Assembly (NCBI GenBank): GCA_963801015.1
Contig: CAWDCV010000005.1
Span: 121,580-185,579, forward strand
Length of the DNA: 64,000 bases
Reading direction: 5' to 3'
Source: an uncultured Actinomycetota bacterium
Lineage (GTDB): Bacteria; Actinomycetota; Actinomycetes; CAWDCV01
Below are positions 552 through 64,000 of this stretch, piece by piece. A program made the translations under genes and the position numbers. Numbering within the stretch: position 1 is the first letter of the stretch; every line of letters begins with the position of its first letter. The notes under the pieces are model-generated. The model made no database searches and had not been told where the DNA came from. It was given only the letters and a program-made list of their open reading frames with translations.

Positions 552-624
552 GCCCCCGTAGCTCAGGGGATAGAGCAACGGTTTCCTAAACCGTGTGCCG
601 CAAGTTCGAATCTTGCCGGGGGCA
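552..624 (+). tRNA. tRNA-Arg (anticodon CCT/CCU), 73 nt, CCA not encoded
   Basis: Cloverleaf read by eye: acceptor GCCCCCG/CGGGGGC, D-stem GCTC/GAGC, anticodon stem ACGGT/ACCGT with loop TTCCTAA (anticodon CCT), T-stem GCAAG/CTTGC with T-loop TTCGAAT, discriminator A. Confidence 0.92.
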
Positions 625-5146: not shown

Positions 5147-6127
5147 ATGAAACGGCCCCTTGTCGCGGTCCTGTCGGCCGCGATCCTCACCATCCTGACC
5201 GCATGCGGTGGCGGCGACGACGACGCTGGTGACACTGCGTCCGACGGTGCGACCGGCGCAAGCGAGACGCAGGCGATCACCGTCGGCGTCATTCCCATCG
5301 TCGACGTCGCGCCGATCTATCTCGGCGTGGAGCAAGGATTCTTCGAGGATCGCGGCCTCGATGTCACGCTGCAAACCGCTCAGGGCGGCGCCGCCATCGT
5401 GCCGGCCGTCCTCAACGGCGAGTTCGACTTCGGATTCAGCAACATCACGTCACTGCTGATCGCGCAGACTCAGGGTCTGCCGCTCAAGGTCGTCGCGGCA
5501 GGTGACAGTACGACGGGCGAGCCGGGAGAGGACTTCGCCGCCGTCGTGGTGCCGCAGGGCAGCAACATCGCCGGTCCCGCCGACCTCGCCGGTCGGACAG
5601 TTGCGGTCAACACCCTCAACAACATCGGGACCACGACGATCTCCAAGGTCGTGGAGGACGCCGGCGGCGACGCGTCGACCATCAACTTCGTCGAGCTGCC
5701 GTTCCCGGACATGCCCGCCGCACTCGCCGAGGGCCGGATCGACGCCGCGTGGGGTCTCGAGCCGTTCCTCACCATCATGCGCAACCAGGGCGCGACGCCA
5801 GTGACGTGGAACTATGCGGAGACGGATCCCAACCTGGTCATCGCGGCCTACTTCACAACACAGCAGAAGGTCGAGGAGGATCCCGAGCTCGTCGAGGCCT
5901 TCACCGAGGCCATGAACGAGTCGCTGCAATACGCCCAGGACAACCCGGACGCTGCGCGCGAGGTACTCGGCAGCTACACGCAGATCGATCCCGCTGTCGC
6001 TGAGGCACTGATTCTGCCGCGCTGGCCCAGCGAGATCGACGCCGACGCGGTACAGCTGCTTGCCGACCTGGCCGAGGAGGACGGGCTCGTCGACACCGCA
6101 CCTGATGTCGAGGCGCTTCTGCCGTGA
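5147..6127 (+). CDS. ABC transporter substrate-binding lipoprotein, NitT/TauT (SsuA/TauA/NMT1-like) family
   Basis: MKRPLVAVLSAAILTILTAC (lipobox LTAC) followed by an NMT1-like SBP body. The track ORF starts 10 codons earlier at 5117. Confidence 0.85.
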   Translation: MKRPLVAVLSAAILTILTACGGGDDDAGDTASDGATGASETQAITVGVIPIVDVAPIYLGVEQGFFEDRGLDVTLQTAQGGAAIVPAVLNGEFDFGFSNITSLLIAQTQGLPLKVVAAGDSTTGEPGEDFAAVVVPQGSNIAGPADLAGRTVAVNTLNNIGTTTISKVVEDAGGDASTINFVELPFPDMPAALAEGRIDAAWGLEPFLTIMRNQGATPVTWNYAETDPNLVIAAYFTTQQKVEEDPELVEAFTEAMNESLQYAQDNPDAAREVLGSYTQIDPAVAEALILPRWPSEIDADAVQLLADLAEEDGLVDTAPDVEALLP

Positions 6128-6951
6128 CGGCAGAGTCGGTCACCGTCGGCGCTGCGGGGGCGACCTCGCACCGCCGCGGTGCGCCGTCCAACGCTGTCCT
6201 CGGCGTGCTTGGCCTGCTCGGGCTCGTCACGGTGATGGAGCTGCTGCCCCGCACCGGCATTGTCGACAGCAGGTTTCTCCCACCCTTCCACGAGATCGCA
6301 CAAGCTCTTGGCGAGCAGCTTCGTCAGCCCGAGTTCTGGACCGCACTCGGCGGGACGCTGCGCGGATGGGCGATCGGTCTCGCGATCGCCATGGTCGCGG
6401 GCATCGCCCTCGGTGTCGTCATCGGCAGCGTCCCGATGCTGCGCGAAGCGACGAACTCGACGATCGAGTTCCTGCGCCCGATTCCGTCGGTCGCGCTGAT
6501 CCCGCTCGCGGTGCTGCTGTACGGCACCGACATGCGGGCAACGCTGCTGCTCGTCGTCTACGCCAGCTTCTGGCAGGTTCTCGTGCAGGTGCTGTACGGC
6601 GTGCAGGACGTCGACCCGGTCGCTCGCGAGACGTCGCGCAGCTACCGGTTCCGCGCGCTCACCCGTGTCCGTACCGTCATCTGGCCGACGGCGCTGCCGT
6701 ACGTCGTCACCGGCTTCCGCCTCGCCGCTGCCGTCGCGCTCATCCTCGAAGTGACCGGCGAGCTCATCATCGGCAGTCCAGGGCTCGGCAACCTCATCGC
6801 CGTCGCGCAGTCATCGGGTGCATATGCCTCGATGTACGCACTCGTCATGGTCACCGGTCTCATCGGCGTCGCCGTCAATGTGATCGCGCGGCAGGTCGAG
6901 CGGCGGGCGCTGCGCTGGCACCCGTCCATTCGGCGTGAGGTGGCCAGGTGA
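6124..6951 (+). CDS. ABC transporter permease (NitT/TauT family)
   Basis: 275-aa polytopic membrane protein; GTG start overlaps the SBP stop (GTGA). Confidence 0.85.
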   Translation: MTAESVTVGAAGATSHRRGAPSNAVLGVLGLLGLVTVMELLPRTGIVDSRFLPPFHEIAQALGEQLRQPEFWTALGGTLRGWAIGLAIAMVAGIALGVVIGSVPMLREATNSTIEFLRPIPSVALIPLAVLLYGTDMRATLLLVVYASFWQVLVQVLYGVQDVDPVARETSRSYRFRALTRVRTVIWPTALPYVVTGFRLAAAVALILEVTGELIIGSPGLGNLIAVAQSSGAYASMYALVMVTGLIGVAVNVIARQVERRALRWHPSIRREVAR

Positions 6952-7733
6952 CACGCGTGCCTCGGCTCGCCACCGGACTGCTCGTTGTTGCGGCGCTCCC
7001 GATCGCCCTGTTCGCCACCTGGTGGGCGGTGACCGCAGACAGCACGAGTTTCTACTGGCCGCCGCTGCGCGAGATTCTCGGCGTCTTCCCGGAGACTTGG
7101 TTCGAGGGGCGACTGACGGAGCAGGTCGTACCGAGCCTCCTGCGGCTCGCGGCCGGCTACGCGCTGGCGCTCGTCGTCGGCATTGGGCTCGGTGTCGCCA
7201 TCGGCTCGTCCCGTGTCCTGCGCGGCTTGCTCGAACCAGTCCTCGAGTTCTTCCGGGCGATCCCGCCACCCGTGCTCGTGCCGGTCCTCATCCTGTTCGC
7301 CGGCATCGGCACCAGCATGAAAATCCTGGTGATCTTCTCCGGCTGCGTGTGGCCGATCCTGCTCAACACCGTCGAGGGCGTCCGCGGCATCGACGAGGTG
7401 CTGCGTGACACCGCACGCTGCTACCGACTGCGTCCGGCCACCCAGCTGCGTTACCTCGTGCTGCGCGCTGCCAGCCCGCAGATTGCGGCGGGCGCGCGGC
7501 AGGCCTTGTCGGTCGGCGTGATCCTCATGGTCATCAGCGAGATGTTCGCCGCCAACAACGGTCTGGGCTTCACGATCGTGCAGTTTCAGCGCTCGTTCGC
7601 GATCCCGGAGATGTGGAGTGGCATCCTGCTGCTCGGCCTGGTCGGCGTCGGGCTGTCCTTGCTGTTCCGGCTCGTCGAGCGCCGGGTGCTGGCCTGGTAT
7701 CGGGGGCAGCGCGACATCGAGCGGAAGGGGTGA
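6948..7733 (+). CDS. ABC transporter permease (NitT/TauT family), second subunit
   Basis: 261 aa, paralogous to the previous permease; GTGA stop/start overlap. Confidence 0.85.
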   Translation: MTRVPRLATGLLVVAALPIALFATWWAVTADSTSFYWPPLREILGVFPETWFEGRLTEQVVPSLLRLAAGYALALVVGIGLGVAIGSSRVLRGLLEPVLEFFRAIPPPVLVPVLILFAGIGTSMKILVIFSGCVWPILLNTVEGVRGIDEVLRDTARCYRLRPATQLRYLVLRAASPQIAAGARQALSVGVILMVISEMFAANNGLGFTIVQFQRSFAIPEMWSGILLLGLVGVGLSLLFRLVERRVLAWYRGQRDIERKG

Positions 7734-23296: not shown

Positions 23297-23344
23297 GCGC
23301 CCACTCCATCACACCCGTCCGACAGTTCTGCCCACCACCGCGAG

Positions 23345-23388
23345 TTGTCCGAACGACGTGACGCCCCGGCGTCACTCCGTTCGGACAA
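23345..23388. promoter_or_regulatory. Nested perfect inverted repeat (11-bp outer arms TTGTCCGAACG/CGTTCGGACAA and 8-bp inner arms GTGACGCC/GGCGTCAC) between the MerR and VOC genes
   Basis: Read directly: ttgtccgaacg acg tgacgcc cc ggcgtca ctc cgttcggacaa. Lies 18 nt after the MerR stop and about 50 nt before the VOC start; no T-tract. Confidence 0.5.
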
Positions 23389-23406
23389 GTCACGAGGAGG
23401 GGCGCG

Positions 23407-27592: not shown

Positions 27593-27650
27593 GACACACA
27601 GCCTGCCAGCGGGGTAGAAGACAGCGAGATGGGGCACGCTCGCAGCATCT

Positions 27651-27745
27651 AAATGATCACGTATACGTGATCATTGAGGGCGATACGCCTGTTACAGAGG
27701 GCGTATCGCCCTAACTCGAGGCGTATCGCACAGCGTCACGGGCGG
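27651..27745. repeat. Composite palindromic intergenic element, copy 1. It contains a 24-bp perfect palindrome AATGATCACGTATACGTGATCATT, a 12-bp inverted-repeat hairpin GGGCGATACGCC-N10-GGCGTATCGCCC, and a third direct copy GGCGTATCGCAC. About 90% identical to 54499..54593.
   Basis: Aligned by eye to copy 2: palindrome identical; 48 of 56 following positions identical; same order and spacing. Confidence 0.7.
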
Positions 27746-29196
27746 CGGCGCAACGTGCGCGGGAGGCCGCGCAGCACGGCCAGCGGAAGCACCGAGCGCG
27801 GCGCGTACGCCGTGCGCCACAGCCCCGCGTGCGCGGCGGCGTGCATGAGCTGATCGTCGGGGTGGGCGAGGTCGACCGCGGGATTCGCCGGCGACTGCGG
27901 ATTGCACAGGTCGTGCACGAGCAGCGTCGCCATCAGCGTGCTCGCCGTCTCGGGAGCGAACACCTCGAGGCCGAACCGTGGACTGCCCTCGTACGCAGCC
28001 GCCAGCGCCCGGTTGCCCATGACGGAGCGCGTCCGCGTCGTCGGCGCGACCCGCATCGACGTGAGTGTGCCGCTGGCTCGCGCGGTGAGGGCGCGCCAGC
28101 GCTGCAGGTGCTTGGCGAGTGCATAATTCGGGCCCTGCTGAAGCACGAGGCAGTCGTTGATACCGACGTCGCGACCATCGCCGCGGTGCAGCGTGTCGGG
28201 ATAGTTCGGGGTCATCAGTCGCTGGCGGCTCACGAAGCTCGTCGCGCGCTGCATCGCCGTCGGTCTCCAGCGGCGACGAGATTCCTCGACAGCAGCCATC
28301 GGCACCGAGAAGACGTCAGTGGGCGTGGCGAGAAAGCCCAACGAGACGTCGCGTCGATGCTGCAGGTCGCCGACGACAGCATCAATCGCGGCATTGACGA
28401 GCACGTGTTGAGCACCGTCGAGGTAGGTGTAGCTCGCGATTGTCAGCGGACCCGGAAGCTCAGCTAGCCAGGACCGCAGCTCCGGGGTATTCGCGACGAC
28501 GTCGAGCCCTGCTTCGTTTCCGACGAGGGGCAGTACGGCCCGGCCGGCGCCACCACGGACGGTCGCACGGATGCGATCCCACAGCTGCGGGCGTGGAACG
28601 TCGACGAGGGCAACGTCCGCTCCCCAGCGAGTCAGCGGTTGCAGCGGGCTCATCTGCGCGGCGGCGCCGAGCAGCGCGACGCGGTGCCCGTCGAGCCGAA
28701 GCCAGTCGGGGTTGGCCATCACGAGCCGAACCGCCTCCGCCAGCGATGGCTCGACGATACCCGCGGCGACCCACCGGTCGAGCTGTCGATGCAGCGCTGC
28801 GTCGCGGAGCAGATCGGTGCCGTACGGCAGCTCGAGTTCACGGGATCGTTGCTGTGGCTGGCCGCTCACCGTCTCGGTGGCCGGCGCATCCACGCGGAGC
28901 GCCGCCATGCACTCCCCGAGCGGTAACCGCTGCTCGTCCCGCTCGAACTCCATCGACGTGTGTAGCGCCACTAGTGCGGCTTTGGCGGCGGCGACCGCGG
29001 CCGGCGCGTAGACGGCGGCCGCTTCGGCGATGCGTCGCACGTGCCGCGGGTAGGCGTGACGCCAGTCCGGTTCCGCATCGACGGCCGCGCCGAGGTCAGC
29101 GTCGATGGCATGAGCCGCCGCCGCGAAGACGCTGCGACCCATGGCCGTCGTACTCGCCCGGCCCAGCCGTGCATCGAGCGGAAACGTGACTCCCAT
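27736..29196 (-). CDS. Hypothetical protein (486 aa) with a Rossmann-like segment (..[24 protein letters not shown]..)
   Basis: Long ORF with protein-like composition; no family recognised from sequence alone. Divergent from the rhodanese gene. Confidence 0.55.
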
Positions 29197-30147: not shown

Positions 30148-30587
30148 CGGCACCCGCCCTGCCCGCGGCCCTCGGCGAGGTCGTCGAGGAGTTCGCCGCC
30201 GTATCTCCTCGTGATCGACTGCAATTGCTCCTGGAGTACTCGCAGGAGCTGCCATCCCTGCCGGCCGAGCTGGCGGCCAACCGGGACCGGCTCGAGCAGG
30301 TGCACGAGTGCCAGACGCCGTTCTTCGTCGCGACATCGATCGATGACGACGGTCGCGTGCGGCTGTTCTTCGACGCTCCGCCGGAGGCGCCGACGACGCG
30401 CGGTTTCGCCGGCATTCTGCACGCCGGCCTCGACGGGGTGACCGCCGGAGAGGTGTTGGCGGTGCCGGACGAGTTCTACGTCGCGCTCGGCCTCCAGGAG
30501 ACGATCAGCCCGCTGCGGCTGCGCGGCATGACCGCCATCCTGCGTCGCATCAAGCACCAGCTCCAGGAGCGTTCGACGCGCTCGTGA
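30144..30587 (+). CDS. SufE-family sulfur-acceptor protein
   Basis: GTG overlaps the rhodanese stop (GTGA). ..[12 protein letters not shown]....[11 protein letters not shown].. carries the conserved SufE Cys. Confidence 0.78.
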
Positions 30588-30593
30588 CCGGCA

Positions 30594-30689
30594 CCGTGAA
30601 GATCGCCGTGTAGGTCGCCGTGAAGATCGTCGTGTAGGTCGTCGTGTAGGTCGTCGTGAAGATCGTCGTGTGGGTCGTCGTGAGCTTTG
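30594..30689. repeat. Tandem repeat, 8 units of 12 bp, consensus (C/T)CGTG(A/T)AG(A/G)TCG
   Basis: ccgtgaagatcg ccgtgtaggtcg ccgtgaagatcg tcgtgtaggtcg tcgtgtaggtcg tcgtgaagatcg tcgtgtgggtcg tcgtgagctttg. Followed at 30705-30740 by a partial inverted copy (cacgaagatctacacgac). Confidence 0.85.
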
Positions 30690-47151: not shown

Positions 47152-47341
47152 GGGTGGCCTCGGTTGCGTCGATGACATAAATTGCGGCGTACACGGGAAG
47201 GGAGGTGGTCCAGCGTTGAGTATTTCCTGGACGCGTGAGGTGGCTGTCAGTTAGCCGCCGTCCTTCGGACCGGTGGACTTCCTGATAGCTAGTTCCACCG
47301 CGACCGCCTGATGGCGGCCGGCGAATACCAGGCAGTCACCA

Positions 47342-47410
47342 CGACCCGCGGGTGCTGGGCCTCGTCCTCCCGGCCCTCCTCATGGAGGTAACCCCGCGGG
47401 TCGTTTGCTG
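47342..47410 (+). terminator. Composite hairpin structure ending in a T-tract: 11-bp outer stem CGACCCGCGGG/CCCGCGGGTCG enclosing two small hairpins, then TTTGCTG. Candidate bidirectional terminator between the convergent thioesterase-like and pdxH genes.
   Basis: Outer arms at 47342-47352 and 47393-47403; inner GGGCC-N10-GGCCC and CCTCC-tcat-GGAGG; TTT at 47404-47406; pdxH stop at 47412-47414. Confidence 0.4.
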
Positions 47411-53271: not shown

Positions 53272-54351
53272 CTAGGTCTTGCGCCCGCGGCGCCGACCGA
53301 TGAGGAACGCGATAAGCATCGCCGCGCCGATAGCGAGAAGGGTCGGGCTCGCTCCACCGTCGTCGTCCGCGTCCGGGTCGTTCGTGTCGGTGATGATCCC
53401 GCCCTGGTCGCCTGCCGCAGCGGTATCCGGATCGGTGTCGGTGTCGCCTGATGTATCGCCTGATGTGCCGACCGCTCCCGTAGCGCCCGATCCGCCTCCG
53501 CCGTCAGCTCCCGTCGGAGGGCCGGCGCCGGCGAGCGGGATCTCCCAGATGGTGCTGTTGGCCTGCTCCGTGCCGGAGAGCAGCACCACCCCGCTGGGGC
53601 CGAACGTGACCGACTCGCCCTGGTTCTGCCCCTGGTCCTGGCCCGGGAGTTCCACGGCTCCGAGCGCGTTACCGGCTGGGTCATAGATCCAGGCGCGGCC
53701 ATAATCGCGCAGCACGAACAGCTGACCGTCGGCGGACCAGGTGCCGTCGGTGACGACGGCGGGGACGTCCCGAATGCGGACCAGCTCGTTGACTCCCTCG
53801 GTAGACAGCTGCTCCGGAGCCTCGTACAGCCCGCCGCCGAAGATCTCCTTCGTGGCGATCCACAGTCGACCCGTCACCGGGTTGACGAGCAGCGCCTCGG
53901 CGTCGTGGGGCAGGCCGTCGGGATAGCGCAACACGTATCTGGTGGTGGCGACTCTCGTCTCCCCAAGGTCGGGCTCATCGATGCGGTAGACCGCGATCTC
54001 CTCGCGGAGAACGTCGTTGTCGCCGATGTCGCCGACCCACAGTGTGCTGTTCGGGCCGCGGGCCACCGCCTCCCAGTCGACGTTCTCGGCGTCCTCGAGC
54101 GTGGCGACGGCGACCACACCGCCGTCGAACCCAACGCCGAACAGCTGGGGCGCTCCGCTGTCGTTGTTCATCCAGAGGACGCCCTGATGCCGGCCGCTCA
54201 ACGCGAGGCCGCTGGCCTCGGTGATCCGTGGATCGGAAATGACGAACAGCTCCCCCGAGCCGCCAGGCGGCGACGCGACAGCGGCCGGCGCCCAGCCAGC
54301 AGCGCCCAGGGCGATGCCGCCGATCAGTGCCGCTGCGGCCCAGCGCCTCAC
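53272..54351 (-). CDS. Secreted beta-propeller-like protein with Gly/Asp-rich linker and C-terminal membrane anchor
   Basis: Signal peptide MRRWAAAALIGGIALGAAGWAPAAVAS; repeated blade-like segments; GADGGGGSGATGAVGTSGDTSGDTDTDPD.. linker; C-terminal LLAIGAAMLIAFLIGRRRGRKT. Confidence 0.62.
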   Translation of the reverse strand: MRRWAAAALIGGIALGAAGWAPAAVASPPGGSGELFVISDPRITEASGLALSGRHQGVLWMNNDSGAPQLFGVGFDGGVVAVATLEDAENVDWEAVARGPNSTLWVGDIGDNDVLREEIAVYRIDEPDLGETRVATTRYVLRYPDGLPHDAEALLVNPVTGRLWIATKEIFGGGLYEAPEQLSTEGVNELVRIRDVPAVVTDGTWSADGQLFVLRDYGRAWIYDPAGNALGAVELPGQDQGQNQGESVTFGPSGVVLLSGTEQANSTIWEIPLAGAGPPTGADGGGGSGATGAVGTSGDTSGDTDTDPDTAAAGDQGGIITDTNDPDADDDGGASPTLLAIGAAMLIAFLIGRRRGRKT

Positions 54352-54498
54352 ACGTCCAACCGTACGTGATCTTTGTGTTCGCGCTCGGAGAGCGACCCTG
54401 CCGATTCTGGACGAAACGGTGCGAGAGTGACGTCGTGGTCTACACCCATCTCGGACGTACGGGACTGCAGGTCAGTCGGCTCTGCCTGGTAGCAGCTC

Positions 54499-54593
54499 CG
54501 AAATGATCACGTATACGTGATCATTTCGGGTCATACGCCTGTTGTAGGAGGCGTATCGCCCTCACTCGAGGCGTATCGCACGCCGTGATCACG
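54499..54593. repeat. Composite palindromic intergenic element, copy 2 (GAAATGATCACGTATACGTGATCATTTC palindrome, hairpin GGGTCATACGCC-N10-GGCGTATCGCCC, third copy GGCGTATCGCAC, GTGATCAC)
   Basis: See copy 1 at 27651..27745; same architecture and orientation. Confidence 0.7.
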
Positions 54594-54610: not shown

Positions 54611-54700
54611 TCAGTCGCTCAAGGCTCCGAGCACGACGACGAGAGCGACGAGCGCGAGCAGGATGAGCGGGACCAGCCACCGACGAGTCCGGGGGTTCAC
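54611..54700 (-). CDS. Possible 29-aa single-TM micro-protein
   Basis: GTG 11 nt after the ThpR stop; VNPRTRRWLVPLILLALVALVVVLGALSD. Weak. Confidence 0.2.
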   Translation of the reverse strand: MNPRTRRWLVPLILLALVALVVVLGALSD

Positions 54701-54710
54701 GGCGTCGACC

Positions 54711-55265
54711 CTAGGGCGCGTCTGACAGCGTCCAGCGACGCACCACCTCGTACCGCGTCGTCCTGCCGAGATGGGACTGCATGAGGAAGATCTCGGCAAC
54801 GGTCCAGGGCGGGCCCACGTAGGAGTCGAGCGCCTCGACCGCCGTGGTGACGTCGGTCGGCGTACGTGCCCGGGCGAGGGTGAGGTGCGGACGGTACGCG
54901 CGCTCCTCGATGGCGATGCCCGTGCGCCGCACCGCGGCGCCCACCGACCCGGCCAGGCGACGCAGCGGCTCGCGGTCCCCGGTCACTCCGGTCCAGAGCA
55001 CGCGGGCGCGCCGGCGACTGCCGAACGTGCTTGCGCCCTCGAACGCAAGGTGGAGGACTGGATGTCGGCGAGCGGCGCGCCCCAACCGTTCAGTCAGTTC
55101 GGGAAGCAGACTCTCGTCGACGGACCCGAGAAAGCCGAGCGTCAGGTGCCAGGAGTCCGGCTCGGTCCAGCGCAGCGCGTCGTCCTGCGATCGCAGCGAT
55201 CGGGTGGCGTCGGCCAGGTGGCGGCGTGCTTCCGGCGACGGCGAAAGCGCCACGAACAGCCTCAC
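54711..55265 (-). CDS. thpR: RNA 2',3'-cyclic phosphodiesterase (2H phosphoesterase, LigT/ThpR)
   Basis: Two H.T. motifs: ..WHLTLGFLG.. and ..PHLTLARAR..; 184 aa. Confidence 0.85.
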   Translation of the reverse strand: MRLFVALSPSPEARRHLADATRSLRSQDDALRWTEPDSWHLTLGFLGSVDESLLPELTERLGRAARRHPVLHLAFEGASTFGSRRRARVLWTGVTGDREPLRRLAGSVGAAVRRTGIAIEERAYRPHLTLARARTPTDVTTAVEALDSYVGPPWTVAEIFLMQSHLGRTTRYEVVRRWTLSDAP

Positions 55266-57859: not shown

Positions 57860-58831
57860 CTAACGGGATTTTTCCGCGGGGTGAAGCGGGTCGAGCCACT
57901 CCCGAGCATCGACGGCCCAGGCCGGGCCGTCGATGTCACGTGCGCGCAGCAGATGCGGAGCCTTGACTCGCCGGGTGAGCACCCGGCTGGCGTCGGCCAC
58001 GACGGGCAGCAGCTGTCCCCGAGCCGCTGCAAGGACCCAGTGCTGAATCGCCGGAAAACGCCGGCCCCTGCGCAGACACGATTCAGCGAGCCAACGGTGA
58101 ATGCGGCCTCGATCGACCGTGACGTCATGCAAACGTTCGATACGCCGCACACCCCGCAGAACCTCGGGCACATCGAGCGACGCATTCCCGGCGTGCAGGC
58201 GATACGCGACCAACCGGCGTTGCGCCACCGCCGGCGGTCCGAGCCGCGACAGCCGAAGCCACATCTCCCAGTCCTCGATGTTCCGGAGGCCAGCGTCGAA
58301 TGGACCGGCACGAGCCAGCAGGTTCCGGCTGGCGATCACATTCGAGCCTCCGCCCGGTATGGCGTTGTAGCGAGGTAGCGCGCGAACTGCCTCGTCCGCA
58401 GTTGGCGTGGGCGGCGCGGAGACGGGGTGGAGCGCGACGTCGACGTTGACGACTCCGCAATACGCCCAGTCCCGGCCACTACGTCGGGCGGAGGCGATCT
58501 GCTCGGACAACTTGTCCGGAGCCCAGACGTCGTCGTCGTCGCAGAACGAGATCCAGTGACCGGTGGACGCGCTGATGCCGGCGTTGCGGGCCTGGCTCAC
58601 CCCCTGCGGCAACGAGTGGCGAAGGTGTTGGGTACGGGCGTCGGCAAAGCTGGCGATGACGTCGCCGGTCCCGTCGGACGAGCCGTCGTCCACGACGACG
58701 ACCTCGAGCTCGACGTCGCGCTGTGCCAGCACCGCACGCAGCGTGGTCCGCAGGAGTGTGCTGCGGTTGTGCGTCGGAATGACGACGGTCACCTCGGGCA
58801 CGTCGGAAGCGTATGGCGCGGGTCCTGGCAA
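57860..58831 (-). CDS. Glycosyltransferase family 2 protein (intact member of a four-paralog set)
   Basis: ..VTVVIPTHNRSTLLRTTLRAVLAQRDVELEVVVVDDGSSDGT..; ..FCDDDDVWAPDKL..; single 323-aa ORF. Confidence 0.85.
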   Translation of the reverse strand: MPGPAPYASDVPEVTVVIPTHNRSTLLRTTLRAVLAQRDVELEVVVVDDGSSDGTGDVIASFADARTQHLRHSLPQGVSQARNAGISASTGHWISFCDDDDVWAPDKLSEQIASARRSGRDWAYCGVVNVDVALHPVSAPPTPTADEAVRALPRYNAIPGGGSNVIASRNLLARAGPFDAGLRNIEDWEMWLRLSRLGPPAVAQRRLVAYRLHAGNASLDVPEVLRGVRRIERLHDVTVDRGRIHRWLAESCLRRGRRFPAIQHWVLAAARGQLLPVVADASRVLTRRVKAPHLLRARDIDGPAWAVDAREWLDPLHPAEKSR

Positions 58832-58913
58832 CTCTCCTTCGCAGTGCCCGCGGCCCGATTAGCATGCGGCAATCCGAGGCCGACGACCGAGGTGGATGCG
58901 ACGTGGGGGGACG

Positions 58914-59883
58914 ATGGCCGACAGGGACGGGAAGCGCCCCGTTCTCGTCCTCGGACTGACTCCCCGGACGGGCACCAACTACCTGTGGGATCTGCTCCGG
59001 CTGCACCCTGCATGCGCCGGCGGACGGGAACCGATCCGCGAGGACTTCTTCCTCGAGCACGCACGTCTGCTGGCCGAGTTCGTCAGCGCCGTCCGCAGCC
59101 GTTGGGATCCGGCGTGGGGACAGCTGGACGACGAAACCGTGGCGGACCTTCGGGCCGGCCTCGGGCTCGGCGCTGCTGCGGTTCCTGACCGTCGATTCCG
59201 ATCGCCGGCTCGTCACCAAGAATCCGAGCGTCGCAGGCATCGACCGGGTGTTCGACTTCTTCCCGACGGCACAAGTGATCATCCTGGCCAGAGACGGGCG
59301 TGCCGTCGTGGAGTCGTGTGTCCGATCCTTCGGCTGGGACCTCGATCTCGCCGCCCGACGCTGGGCGACGGCCGCTCGGACGGGGCTTGGTTTCCTGGCC
59401 AGCCGAGGTCCGCATGACCCGAGCGTCCGCCTCGTGCGCTACGAGGACCTGGTTGTCGACTGCCCTGGGCAGATGAGGCGGCTGCTGCGCTTCCTCGACC
59501 TGGACACCGCCGAGTACGACTTCGCGGCTGCTGAGCACCTTCCAGTGCGAGGATCCTCCGTTTTCCACGGCGGAAAGCCGCAGGTGCATTGGGATCCCGT
59601 CGAACGAACGGACGGCTTCGACCCGCTGCGTCGCTCGGAGCACTGGAGCCTCCCTCAACATGAACGCTTCGCCTGGCTCGCCGGCCGCGAGCAGGTCGCC
59701 CTGGGCTACTCCTTGGACGCGGCGACGCCGGTGACACCGAGCGGGCGCGCACATCAGACCTGGCTCAGCACCCAGTGGCGGATCCGCCGGGGCGCGAAGC
59801 TCGCCGAGTACCGGACGCGCGGCTGGCTCGGGCCCCCAACCCGGCCGCTGCGCAGGCGACTTGGGCTGGCACATGAGTCCTGA
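58914..59883 (+). pseudogene. Sulfotransferase-family protein with a +1 frameshift near 59169
   Basis: Frame 0: MADRDGKRPVLVLGLTPRTGTNYLWDLL (PAPS 5'PSB-like) ..DLRAGLG. Frame +1 from 59170: ALLRFLTVDSDRRLVTKNPSVAGIDRVFDFFPTAQVIILARDGRAVVES... (3'PB region). The two pieces form one sulfotransferase. Confidence 0.68.
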
Positions 59884-60797
59884 GGTCTCCGTGGTGATCC
59901 CGACCCACAACCGACGGGAGCTGCTCGCGCTCACGTTGCGGACGGTCTGCGAGCAGAAGGACGTCGACCTCGAAGTCATCGTGGTCGACGACGGCTCGAG
60001 GGAGGAGGCTGCCCGCGAGGTCGTCGGAGCCCGCCAGGACCCTCGGGTGCGTCTCCTGCGAAACGCCACGCCGATGGGCGTCAGCGCCAGCCGCAATCGC
60101 GGCGTAGAGGAGGCCGTCGGGCGCTGGGTGGCGTTCTGTGACGACGACGACCTGTGGGCCCCGCAGAAGCTGCGCGAGCAGCTAGCGCAGCGGAGCAGGC
60201 CAGCCGCTCGTGGGTGTACGCGGGCGCGGTCAAGATCGACGATGCCCTGCGCGTCATCGGTGGCGAGCCGCCCCAGCCGCCCGGAAGTCGTGCATCGGCG
60301 GTTGCCCCGGTGGACCCTGGTCCCGGGCGGCTGCTCGGGTGTGATCGCTCGCCGGGATCTCGTTCGGGACGTGGGTGGCTTCGACCCCGACCTGGTCAAT
60401 CTCGCCGACTGGGACCTGTGGAGCCGCCTGGCTGGGTACGGTCCGCCCGCGGCCGTGCCGTTGCCACTCGTCGGCTATCGAATCCACGGCGGCAACTCCT
60501 CGCAGGACACCAGCCTCGTGCTGCGGGAGCTCGACCGGCTCGACGGGCGCTACGGCGTCCGCGTGGATCGGGCCGCCGTCCATCACTATCTGGCGTGGGT
60601 GTCCTTGCGGGGAGGGCGTCGGCGGCAGGCGGGCCGGGCACTTCCTGCAGGCAGCCGGACGCGGCGATGTCGTCGGCGTCGCCCGCAGTCTGTCGGCGCT
60701 CGCCCGGGGTCACCTCGCCGGACCGGCTCGGCCGCTCCCCCATGCCGAGTGGCGGTATGCGGCCGATCGGTGGTTGGAGCCGCTGCGATGGGGCTAA
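59873..60797 (+). pseudogene. GT2 glycosyltransferase paralog with three frameshifts (about 60190, 60283, 60630)
   Basis: Segments in three frames (..FCDDDDLWAPQKLREQLAQ | AEQASRSWVYAGAVKIDDALRVIGGEPPQPP | EVVHRRLPRWTLVPGG...LRGGRR | AGHFLQAAGRGDVV..PLRWG*) align colinearly with the intact paralog 57860..58831. Confidence 0.68.
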
Positions 60798-61752
60798 CCG
60801 AGCTCATCGAGCCACGCCTGAGCCGTGGAGAAGTAGGCGGCCAGTGCAGCGTCCGGTACCGGCGGCGCCGGGAACGGCAGGTGCATCCGGCGGGCCAGCT
60901 GCCCGCTGCGGGCGCCGAGCAGCTGGCCGACGTCGAGCAGCAGCGCATCGCGCCGGTACGGCGGGGACAGCCGGGCAGTTCGCGCGTACCAACGCAGCGC
61001 CTCCCCGCGACGGCCCGCTCGCGCCGAGAGTCGGCCGAGGTGTCGGTACAGCGTGACGCGGTCCAGCGGTCCGCCGTACCTGCGCTCGATCTCGAGCGCT
61101 CCCCTGAGGATCTCCGACGTCACCAGAGACGAGCCTCGATCGTGCACGCGGTAGCCGACGAGGGGAGCAGGGACCCAACGCGGCGTCGAGAGCCGGCTCA
61201 ACCGCACCCACATATCCCAGTCCTCGGTGTTGCGGAGTCGACCATCGAATGGACCGGCGCGCTCGAACAGGCTGTGGTGGACGAGCACGCCGGAGCCACC
61301 GCCGGGTACGACGTTGCGCCGCGGCAGGAGCGCGGCCACCTGCTCCGGAGGAAGGGGCAACGTTCCCCCCACGACCCGACCCGTGACGTCGACGTTCACC
61401 GAACCGGTGTAGACCCAGCCCGCCCATCCATCGTCGGTCGCGCGCAGTTGCTCCGTGAGCTTGTCCGGAGCCCAGACGTCGTCGTCGTCGCAGAACGCGA
61501 CCCAATCGCCACCTGCCGCAGCCGCCCCCGGTTGCGCGCGGCACTCACGCCCTGGGCGGTCTCGTTGCGCAGCGGTCGGATCCGGTCGTCGGCGACCTGT
61601 TCCAGGACGGCCACCACCTGCCCTGGCGGCGATCCGTCGTCGACCACCACGATCTCGAGGTCGACGTCCCGCTGGCTCCTGATCGAGCACAGCGTGTGGC
61701 GGAGGAGGTGCGCGCGGTCGTGCGTGGGGACGACGACGCTCACCGCAACCAT
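60794..61752 (-). pseudogene. GT2 glycosyltransferase paralog with one frameshift in a G5/C5 run near 61527
   Basis: N-terminus MVAVSVVVPTHDRAHLL...VSAARNRG (ORF 61396..61752), then AAAAGGDWVAFCDDDDVWAPDKLTEQ... continues in the frame of ORF 60794..61903. Confidence 0.68.
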
Positions 61753-61778
61753 CCGCGCACGGTAGCGAGCCGAGCCCG

Positions 61779-63042
61779 GTGACCCGAGCCCGTCCCGGAA
61801 CGGCGCTGCTGCCCGCCGGAGACCGGTTCGAGGACTTCTTCGACAAGGTCGGCGTGACTCTGGAGTCGTTCCGCCACGAGCAGACCGGCGGCTGGCTGTT
61901 CAACTACGTCGAGGCGTTGCGCAGCGGCGGCTGCGACACGGCGCTCGTGTTCATGTCCGCCCGCGTGACCGGCCCCGTCCGCTTCGTCCACCAGCCCACC
62001 GGCTGCCGGGTCAGCGTCCTGCCCAGCCCATCGTGCATCGCAAGCTACGGGCGGCTCGATGGCGCTTCGCCCCCGAATCGCGGCTGCTCCGGTCGCTGGA
62101 GGCGTACGTCGCGACGCCGCCGCGCGCGCTGTCGCGAGAGCTGCAGCGGCTGGACTGCACTGTGTTGCTCTGCCAGGAGTACGAGTCGGCGCGGTTCGAC
62201 GTGTGCGTCATGCTCGGCCGCCTGACCCGGCCGCCCGGTGTTCGCCACGTACCAGGGCGCCCAGGACGGCCACAGTCCCTGGGAGCGCCCGGTGCGTCGG
62301 CTGGCGATGCGGTGGTGCCAGGGAGTGATCGTCGGGAGCGCGGTTGAACGAGAGCGGGTCCGGGCTCGCTATCGCATGCCCGCGGAGAAGCTGGCGCCGA
62401 TCCCGAACCCGCTGGACGTGCGGCGCTGGGACCAGGAGACCAGAACGAGGCCCGTGAAGCGCTGGGGCTCCCGCTCGAGCGACGCATCGTCGTCTGGCAC
62501 GGGCGGGTGCAGATCGAGCGCAAGGGCCTGGACGTGCTGCTCGAGCGCCTGGCGGCTGCTGTACGCCGCCCGGCCGGACCACCGCCACTGCTCCTTCTCG
62601 TCGGTTCCGGCCGGGACGCCGAGGAGCTGCGTCGGCGACTGCGCGACCCGGCGCTCGGTGGCGTCATCTGGGTCGACGAGTACGTGCAGGACCGTGATCG
62701 GTTGTGGCGCTACCTCGCCGCGGCCGACGTCGCCACGCTGCCCTCCCGGCACGAAGGCTTCGCGCTCGCGGTGCTGGAGGCGATGGCCTGTGGGCTGCCC
62801 GTGGTCGCCGCCGACGTCTCCGGGGTACGGACCTGCTCGAGGCGGCGGCCGGGGTGGAGACGGGAATCGTGGTGCCGCCCGACGACGCCGAGGCGCTCGC
62901 CGCCGCGCTCGGGCTCCTGATCGACGACCCCGACCGCAGCCGTCGCCTCGGAGCGGCGGCGCGAGCCGTCGCCGAGTCCTTCTCGCTCGAGCAGGTCGGC
63001 AAGCAGCTCGCCGCCGTCCTCGTACCCGGGTCCGGGCGATGA
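61779..63042 (+). pseudogene. GT4 (group-1) glycosyltransferase with at least 4 frameshifts (about 62010, 62235, 62432, 62825)
   Basis: GT4 pieces are spread over frames: N-domain (..FVHQPTGCRVSVLPSPS), ..LEAYVATPPRALSRELQRLDCTVLLCQEYESARFDV.., ..VIVGSAVEREWVRARYRMPAEKLAPIPNPLDVRRWD | PGDQNEAREALGLPLERRIVVWHGRVQIERKGLDVLLERL...HEGFALAVLEAMACGLPVVAADVSG | GTDLLEAAAGVETGIVVPPDDAEALAAAL... Confidence 0.62.
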
Positions 63043-63072
63043 GCGGGGGATCCACGCCGACGAGAACCCGAA

Positions 63073-64000
63073 GTGACCGTGGTGGTGCCGACGAAGGACC
63101 GGGGCGCGCTGCTGAGTCAGACGCTGCGCAGCATTCGCTGGCAGCGGGACGTCGACTTCGAGGCGCTCGTGGTCGACGACGGCTCGATCGACAGCGAGTT
63201 GGTCCGGCGGGTGGTCGCGGATCTCGACGACGCCCGGTTCCGCGTCCTGCGGAACGAGACGAGCCGAGGCGTCAGCGCCGCGCGCAACCGTGGAGCGGCG
63301 GAGGGAGCGGGGCGGTGGGTGGCGTTCTGCGACGACGACGATCTGTGGGCGCCGGACAAGCTCGCGAAGCAGCTGGCGGCCGTCCGCGGGTCGGGGGCGG
63401 ATTGGGTGTACGTCGGGTCCGTCAACGTGACGATGCGCAACCGGGTCGTGGGCGGGGAGCTCCGCCACCTCCGCCCGCCGAGGTCGTCGAGCAGCTGGAG
63501 GAGCACAACGTCGTCCCGGGAGGAGCCTCCGGCGTGCTCGCGCGCCGGAGCGTGCTGCAGGACGTGGGCGGCTTCGACCCCGCCCTGCAGCCGCTGGCCG
63601 ACTGGGATCTGTGGTTGCGGGTCCTGCACGTGTCAGCGCCCGCCTGTGTTGCCGAGCCGCTCGTGGCCTACCGGGTCCACGGCACGAACATGTCGCTGGA
63701 CACTCGACGCGTCGAAGCGGACTTCGCTGTGGTGGCGGGGCGAAACCCGCGGGCGAACCGCGCGGTCCTCTACCGATACCTGGGCTGGTGGTCCATCCGG
63801 GTCGGCCGCCACGCGGACGCAGCTCGCCTCTTCCTTCGGGGGGCGGCAGAGCGGGACGCGCGCTACCCGGTCGACCTCGCCCGGCAGGACCTGATCTATC
63901 TCGCTCGGCAGGCCGCGGATCGCGCCCGCGTTCTCCTCCGGCCAGGCCGCCCGGCGCGGCGCCCGCCGGTCGCCGCCGTCGTCGAGCACGCGGACTGGCG
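63073..64000 (+). pseudogene. GT2 glycosyltransferase paralog with one frameshift in a C-run near 63465; runs off the window end
   Basis: MTVVVPTKDRGALLSQTLRSIRWQRDVDFEALVVDDGS...FCDDDDLWAPDKLAKQ..VVGGEL, then PPPPAEVVEQLEEHNVVPGGASGVLARR...ADWDLWLRVLHVS... in the -1 frame to position 64000. Confidence 0.68.

Follow-up and report, generated by a model that had tools for sequence, protein, structure and literature searches.

What kind of element is the palindromic composite of about 95 nt that stands between a beta-propeller-like gene and thpR in this actinobacterial DNA, and does it serve those genes in particular? The window, by which we mean the whole 64-kb stretch of DNA that was analysed, carries two copies of it, and the preliminary description had taken them for a generic element rather than a pathway-specific operator. 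The copy in question (copy 2) is composed of a palindrome (P), a hairpin (H) and a direct repeat of one hairpin arm (R'), arranged as follows.

54492-54592, unstranded: copy 2, the composite element of about 95 nt, P-H-R' with a trailing half-P-like GTGATCAC
54498-54529, unstranded: P, a perfect 32-bp palindrome (CCGAAATGATCACGTATACGTGATCATTTCGG) with the conserved 18-bp core GATCACGTATACGTGATC at 54505-54522
54528-54561, unstranded: H, a hairpin with its L arm at 54528-54539, its loop at 54540-54549 and its R arm at 54550-54561
54570-54579, unstranded: R', GGCGTATCGC, a direct repeat of the R arm that starts 20 nt after the start of R
54585-54592, unstranded: trailing segment GTGATCAC, which holds the P half-motif TGATCAC(G)

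The 28-bp palindrome that had been described here is present, but it lies inside a longer perfect palindrome of 32 bp at 54498-54529. The arms of H, GGGTCATACGCC and GGCGTATCGCCC, form a 12-bp hairpin with a 10-nt loop, and the two mismatches reported for the first arm are there as well: the L arm differs from that of copy 1 at two positions, so that on the plus strand one pair is a U.G wobble and another a C.C mismatch. The additional palindrome mentioned after the hairpin is GTGATCAC, at 54585-54592; copy 1 has GCGTCAC at this position, and the orthologous element of a relative (L149) has ACGTGAC. On one side, copy 2 adjoins the beta-propeller-like gene (53272-54351, minus strand), with 146 nt from P to its GTG, in agreement with the earlier figure of about 145 bp. 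On the other side, the upstream gene at 54711-55265 (minus strand) has LigT/2H-phosphoesterase domains, consistent with its naming as thpR. The micro-ORF suspected after thpR is real and is conserved in three relatives, but the gap that separates it from the element, given as about 10 bp, is 18 nt to GTGATCAC and 31 nt to the third arm.

Copy 1 lies between a gene for a 486-aa protein without known function (27736-29196) and an HIT-family gene.

27642-27736, unstranded: copy 1, with P at 27652-27675, H at 27678-27711 and R' at 27720-27729

The two copies share one architecture, as had been claimed: they are 85% identical over 95 nt, stand in the same orientation and have unrelated flanks. Both are intergenic, each between tandem minus-strand genes, with a P of 24-32 nt and an H stem of 12 bp. 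The 20-mer TGATCACGTATACGTGATCA occurs twice in the window against 0.00 occurrences expected from shuffles, and the arm-N10-arm pattern likewise occurs twice against 0.00 expected. Folding compared with shuffles gave z values of -4.8 to -6.9 for both copies on either strand, and the minimum-energy fold of the minus strand of copy 1 uses L':R. A three-copy nhmmer profile matched copy 2 with E = 4e-33; in the 64-kb window, mismatch patterns and an nhmmer profile revealed no more diverged copies beyond copies 1 and 2. Rfam, run on the whole window at gathering score, gave no match at the element and, at E values up to 10, only noise at the locus; 12 related loci also gave no match at gathering score. 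Scans for sigma-70-like promoter and terminator consensus sequences at both copies found nothing inside the element, and the terminator scan found no U-tract after the hairpin at either copy, where the tails read UUUCGG and UUGAGG. An alignment of the flanks had been suggested as a search for target-site duplications. None is visible at either copy, and neither target-site duplications nor terminal inverted repeats were found in the flanks of both copies or at empty or altered sites.

The core of P recurs well beyond the window. A scan for GATCACGTATACGTGATC in one genome per species, covering 185,579 species, returned 20 stretches in all. Actinopolymorpha alba DSM 45243 holds 11 of these, on 10 scaffolds, and three actinobacterial metagenome-assembled genomes (MAGs) hold six; the other three lie inside long ORFs of proteobacterial MAGs and are chance-like. 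All actinobacterial matches are intergenic, mostly with a stop codon 20-60 nt away. A metagenome scan for GATCACGTWWACGTGATC gave at least 120 stretches on more than 100 contigs, mostly of 65-76% GC among the matches listed. The 18-bp core, GATCACGT-NN-ACGTGATC, recurs unchanged in distant lineages of actinobacteria, namely, A. alba, a lineage with elements of type A (its fba is nearest to that of Acidothermus/Frankiaceae, at 81% amino acid identity) and unclassified Actinomycetes. The exact TA-centred core was found in no Mycobacterium genome of the 185,579-species scan, and no P was found in 12 kb of a MAG labelled Mycobacterium sp. that was reached via fba homologs. About 85 kb from relatives of the window yielded one full and one partial copy of the element, against two copies in the 64 kb of the window itself. 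A viral origin of the core was considered and rejected, since the four viral contigs that match are all of about 50% GC, unrelated and chance-like; a plasmid search for the core gave no match. In many genomes and metagenomes of actinobacteria, the core stands beside genes without a common function, which agrees with the earlier view of a generic element. Literature searches for the element sequences and for actinobacterial REP-like repeats found no description, and the repeat family is apparently undescribed so far.

Across this family, the core of P is constant; in the searched pattern just two central bases vary, and these would fall in the loop. Beyond the core, the stem sequences differ and their complementarity is kept. 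At extension positions 1 to 7, Watson-Crick pairing occurs at 39-75 of the 93 sites, whereas shuffles give 25-49; each position shows two to four pair types, and these counts partly reflect subfamilies of shared descent. Within A. alba, the extensions read CTGAAT/ATTCAG, CCAAAT/ATTTGG and CAGAAT/ATTCTG. A second hairpin of 10-14 bp nearly always stands beside P, and its sequence varies by lineage: CCCCGAGGACA-N12-TGTCCTCGGGG in a 66%-GC lineage (type A), CCTTGCACGG...CCGTGCAAGG in 70-76%-GC lineages (types B and C) and GCGATACGCC...GGCGTATCGC in elements of the window type. Type B sometimes has a full second P, 62 nt after the first, at the end that corresponds to GTGATCAC of copy 2; otherwise, types B and C have a third arm. 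For 51 elements with a clear hairpin, we compared the R arm with the downstream 10-mers at offsets of 0 to 30. Identity peaks solely at offset +10, with a mean of 5.3/10 versus 2.2-3.4/10 (about 2.7) elsewhere, and it reaches at least 7/10 at this offset in 20 of the 51 elements, among them the window type and types A, B and C, whose sequences are unrelated. Because the +20 register, from the start of R to the start of R', is common to types that are unrelated in sequence, P-H-R' is a conserved architecture of modules that evolve per lineage, as in mosaic BIMEs. No conserved single-stranded sequence is common to the element types. A further composite type, with P central and not terminal, occurs at four A. 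alba loci (L004, L008, L013, and L017), where the core forms the tip of an imperfect hairpin about 90 nt long (CTGGTCGCCGCA...-P-...GGGGACCAGGAAC).

Gene context was assessed with a crude GC3-based ORF caller for 31 elements that have identifiable neighbours on both sides. Of these, 16 are flanked by convergent genes, 10 by tandem genes (five in each orientation) and five by divergent genes. That about half of these elements sit between convergent genes, with no promoter there, is a second point in favour of a generic element. The elements lie 12-48 nt past stop codons, and some overlap the stop via the TGA of TGATCA; several upstream ORFs, including one in the window and one in L026, have as their stop the TGA at the P edge. 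Clustering of neighbours in search of gene families enriched beside P gave orthologous loci only. The non-Watson-Crick pairs of the H stem, read on the P-to-H strand, comprise 30 G.U and 25 A.C pairs, without bias, and the P extension shows no strand bias of G.U versus A.C pairs. Because no strand is singled out, the constraint acts on the DNA or on transcripts from both directions.

Close relatives record the history of both loci in the window. In L141 (93% nucleotide identity) and L142 (76% amino acid identity), a 114-aa cupin gene lies on the opposite strand between the 486-aa gene and the HIT gene, and window positions 27618-27754 (137 nt, including copy 1) stand in place of positions 2069-2437 of L141 (369 nt). 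At the copy 2 locus, homology between L147 (95% nucleotide identity) and the window ends exactly at the P-side edge, from which an intact aldo-keto reductase gene continues in L147. The window retains a stump of each gene.

27629-27652, plus strand: 5' stump of the cupin gene (MGHARSI*), abutting the P side of copy 1; the gene is intact in L141 and L142
54435-54506, plus strand: 5' stump of the aldo-keto reductase gene, its first 18 codons (VVYTHLGRTGLQVSRLCL) and then VAAPK*, with the TGA of P's TGATCA as stop; the gene is intact in L147

At both window copies, the P side abuts a 5' stump and the deletion endpoint coincides with the P-side terminus; two independent deletions would thus appear to end at the same terminus of the element. 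L149 (76-82% nucleotide identity) has an element at the copy 2 locus in the same position and orientation. Its H reads GCGATGCTCG/CGAGCATCGC versus GCGATACGCC/GGCGTATCGC in the window. Both partners differ in 3 of the 12 pairs, which amounts to three compensatory double substitutions, and pairing holds in 97% of L:R cells. Two of the three changes in R recur in R' of L149 (CGCGCATCGC), which keeps the alternative L:R' helix paired in 93% of cells. Copy 1 and L149 also have the H loop TGTTAYAGAG in common. The element at the copy 2 locus has been inherited vertically with compensatory change, and because of this inheritance it is more than a recent selfish insertion. Other relatives differ: in L153, thpR, the micro-ORF and the propeller gene are present without the element, and L148 keeps no more than about 20 nt similar to the element's R'-side end, beside a putative aldo-keto reductase remnant that was read from sequence motifs and has no match in Pfam. 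Presence of the element varies among close relatives at both window loci, again as expected of a generic element, and the element is gained, lost or eroded among them. From its distribution and indel polymorphism, we infer that the element is probably mobile; no transposase was found with it.

Two further features lie beside copy 2.

54611-54700, minus strand: micro-ORF, 28 aa after its GTG, hydrophobic, (V)NPRTRRWLVPLILLALVALVVVLGALSD*; between thpR and the element and not part of the repeat
54352-54375, minus strand: start region of the propeller gene, GATCACGTACGGT before the GTG, with a P half-site and a TANNNT-type -10 box (TACGGT) 7 nt before the start

Conservation of the micro-ORF in L148, L149 and L153 is at the protein level, including synonymous changes, and holds whether the gene upstream is thpR or APH; TAGGGT stands 7-8 nt before its GTG in every case. 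It looks like a putative leaderless gene for a small membrane protein. In the start region of the propeller gene lies the fifth GATCACGTA (the P half-site) of the window, at 54363-54371, against 0.19 expected. Its overlap with TACGGT is conserved in L147, L148, L149 and L153, with or without the element. These features suggest that the propeller mRNA may be leaderless, and the conserved half-site leaves room for a DNA-binding regulator that would recognise GATCACGTA.

Comparison with known systems places the family closest in kind to structured repeats of two sorts. Like REP/BIME repeats, it consists of short palindromic units that are extragenic and mostly at gene 3' ends, that form mosaics with other motifs in either orientation and that fall into subfamilies with compensated stems; in both, a single gene can sit between inverted copies. 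In REPs, one end of the palindrome bears a conserved tetranucleotide, GTAG or CGTC (PMC3733652), whereas the family here has no such tag and its P ends in AAAT/ATTT or GTT/AAC. The REP palindrome is imperfect and P is perfect; REPs are species or genus specific, whereas the P core is conserved across distant lineages; and the sole gene seen bracketed here is AbiEi-like, without a Y1/HUH RAYT. The hosts of the family are Actinomycetes, and the REP survey makes no mention of actinobacteria (PMC3733652). The nearest description in print is that of TRIT ("Tuberculosis Rho-independent terminator"), a conserved, palindromic and bidirectional sequence at the ends of mycobacterial genes that often overlaps a stop codon and has 147 copies in M. 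tuberculosis; it is reported as restricted to Mycobacterium, and a factor is suspected (PMC3152330). TRIT and the family here are both actinobacterial, conserved in sequence and structure, palindromic and so bidirectional, and located at gene termini, with overlap of the stop codon at times, no obvious U-tract and an unknown factor suspected. Compared by description, not by TRIT sequence or model, they differ in that the exact P core was found in no Mycobacterium among the 185,579 species scanned, which argues for a family analogous to TRIT but distinct from it.

Other known systems share fewer features with the element. Like the MITEs Correia, RUP, ERIC and Nezha, it is about 100 nt long, structured, intergenic and polymorphic for presence or absence, and it can supply stop codons to neighbouring genes; unlike them, it is without terminal inverted repeats or target-site duplications, and it has no known parent insertion sequence. 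Intrinsic terminators also have stable GC-containing hairpins just past stop codons, but the element has no U-tract and its sequence is conserved between unrelated loci and genomes. The operators of AbiEi antitoxins (type IV toxin-antitoxin systems) resemble some elements in that an AbiEi-family DNA-binding protein is encoded beside inverted-repeat DNA. Here, however, the repeats lie on both sides of the gene and are dispersed genome-wide, there is no adjacent AbiEii toxin gene, and the predicted protein has an extra C terminus of about 120 aa. The operators of a regulon stand at promoters of related genes, whereas here 16 of 31 elements lie between convergent genes and the neighbours are unrelated.

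The element is repeated, intergenic, biased toward gene 3' ends, independent of orientation and self-complementary on both strands, with its pairing kept, and it is gained and lost. We consider it probable that it is the lineage-specific form of a widespread family of mosaic, dispersed, intergenic structured repeats of high-GC actinobacteria, REP/BIME-like (and TRIT-like) in kind, and we propose for it a role as a barrier or binding site. P and H would fold whenever transcription runs into them, or could extrude from the DNA, and once folded they may act as barriers, either protecting mRNA 3' ends from 3' exonucleases or insulating neighbouring units. Transcript-end protection and insulation are known roles of REPs. 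Because there is no U-tract, P and H are presumably not autonomous intrinsic terminators. The invariant core of P, and probably the phased L, R and R' boxes as well, could be the recognition site of a putative sequence-specific protein that maintains or spreads the family; we propose such a reader since a structural constraint by itself would not keep 18 bp unchanged in lineages so distant from each other.

A protein that reads P could also be a conventional regulator. In an operator model, P would be the site of a dimeric regulator or nucleoid-associated protein, L, R and R' would be phased auxiliary double-stranded DNA sites, and the window copies would regulate the HIT and propeller genes. 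P is a perfect palindrome of 18-32 bp that does not vary in sequence between lineages, the three 10-nt boxes recur at intervals of about 20 bp (two helical turns) and both window copies lie upstream of minus-strand genes. The fifth GATCACGTA, overlapping the conserved TACGGT box before the propeller start and kept in four relatives, fits this model, as do the putative DNA-binding proteins of the AbiEi family that are encoded between inverted copies elsewhere. Yet half of the elements lie between convergent genes, their orientation is random relative to their neighbours, and those neighbours are functionally unrelated. Moreover, the stem beyond the core varies while keeping its complementarity, something a protein that reads sequence would not need, neither copy has a promoter-like site, and relatives retain the same genes without the element. 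Because of the convergent locations and the unrelated neighbours, an operator for the adjacent genes is unlikely, and the element is presumably not a specific regulator of the adjacent HIT or propeller genes.

The two other models place the function in RNA. A factor-assisted, bidirectional terminator, as proposed for mycobacterial TRIT, would have a protein recognise the conserved double-stranded RNA stem, and we think it improbable. The elements do stand 12-48 nt past stop codons or overlap them, they are palindromic and so alike from both directions, they are enriched between convergent genes, and TRIT is likewise conserved, palindromic, bidirectional and stop-overlapping (PMC3152330). However, no U-tract follows P or H in any lineage, the terminator scan was empty at both copies, and five elements lie between divergent genes. 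According to Czyz et al. (PMC3993855), mycobacterial RNA polymerase needs a U-tract at intrinsic terminators, and in M. tuberculosis Term-seq, each predicted terminator class, TRIT included, accounts for 2-4% of the mapped 3' ends (bioRxiv 10.1101/2022.06.01.494293). A strand-specific cis-regulatory RNA or small RNA, in which a switch between L:R and L:R' controls the downstream gene, strikes us as very unlikely. Two mutually exclusive helices are supported by pairing (97% and 93% of cells) with compensatory changes, L':R is used in the minimum-energy minus-strand fold of copy 1, and the H loop is conserved between copy 1 and L149, but Rfam gave no match at gathering or permissive thresholds and wobble pairs are without strand bias. 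The elements also occur in both orientations relative to their neighbours and between convergent genes, their types have no single-stranded sequence in common, and neither copy has a promoter or terminator.

For the REP/BIME-like repeat that we favour, a candidate partner is encoded between inverted elements in other genomes. The loci with bracketed AbiEi-family genes are as follows.

L026, 4453-5815: locus of a bracketed AbiEi-family gene, type A contig
L096, 3241-4604: locus of a bracketed AbiEi-family gene, type A contig
L087, about 6060-7330: locus of a bracketed AbiEi-family gene, type A contig
L069, 1-1174: locus of a bracketed AbiEi-family gene, type B contig
L154, 11075-12790: locus of an AbiEi-family gene between half-P elements

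In the three type A contigs, the gene encodes 310-341 aa and lies between two inverted elements with P outermost. The type B contig has the same arrangement around a homolog that is 40% identical; it begins just inside the left element, and the left P is outside the sequence. In L154, a homolog that is 40-46% identical is bracketed by a half-P, GTTGATCACGTT, with a different hairpin, present in three copies in 21 kb. The identity of the AbiEi-like protein falls with element type (86%, 61-67%, and 40-46%), against 92% for the neighbouring fba (L154 versus L026). In Acidothermus cellulolyticus, the 21 kb around fba contain neither an AbiEi-like gene nor P, and the window contains no AbiEi-like gene bracketed by elements. 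Models of AbiEi antitoxins match the first ~195 residues of the protein, and there is an extra C-terminal region of about 120 aa, which may be nuclease-like, though only by our own reading of a DF...EFDG...K motif. Sequence and profile searches of NCBIfam and PDB gave no match for the AbiEi-like protein, and tblastn against plasmids gave two distant Tsukamurella matches only. Because the AbiEi-like gene sits between inverted elements in at least three element types, P-H-R' might represent the ends of a mobile or "domesticated" actinobacterial system that has so far escaped recognition, together with its miniature nonautonomous derivatives. An AbiEi-family winged-helix DNA binder with an added C-terminal domain would serve as the cognate protein, in a RAYT-like role with a different fold. 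With bracketing evidence that consists of one orthologous locus and one independent case, we regard this as a speculative reading that is probably not correct; the interest of the family would be higher if the AbiEi-like protein proved to be the partner of the elements.

High-GC actinobacteria lack most canonical terminators. A census of the family, together with the protein that binds the P core, would address how these bacteria mark or protect transcript ends, whether actinobacteria host a REP-like system with a dedicated protein, and why short-read assemblies and gene order break at the elements. A. alba DSM 45243 is cultured and has at least 11 copies; therefore, these questions are directly testable.

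The window holds several other structured or repeated features. Rfam matches an actinobacterial small RNA, Ms_IGR-5 (86 bits), at 47191-47409 (plus strand) and a tRNA at 552-624 (plus strand). A 74-nt near-palindrome at 23330-23403, with 36-nt arms 2 nt apart that are 78% complementary, has no sequence relationship with the element. Repeats with a 12-nt period, in CGTGAAGATCGC and CGTGTAGGTCGC variants, occupy 30582-30683. Finally, segments of about 2-3 kb at 58232-60421 and 61181-63614, in direct and inverted arrangements, share 70-75% identity and are probably paralogous genes.
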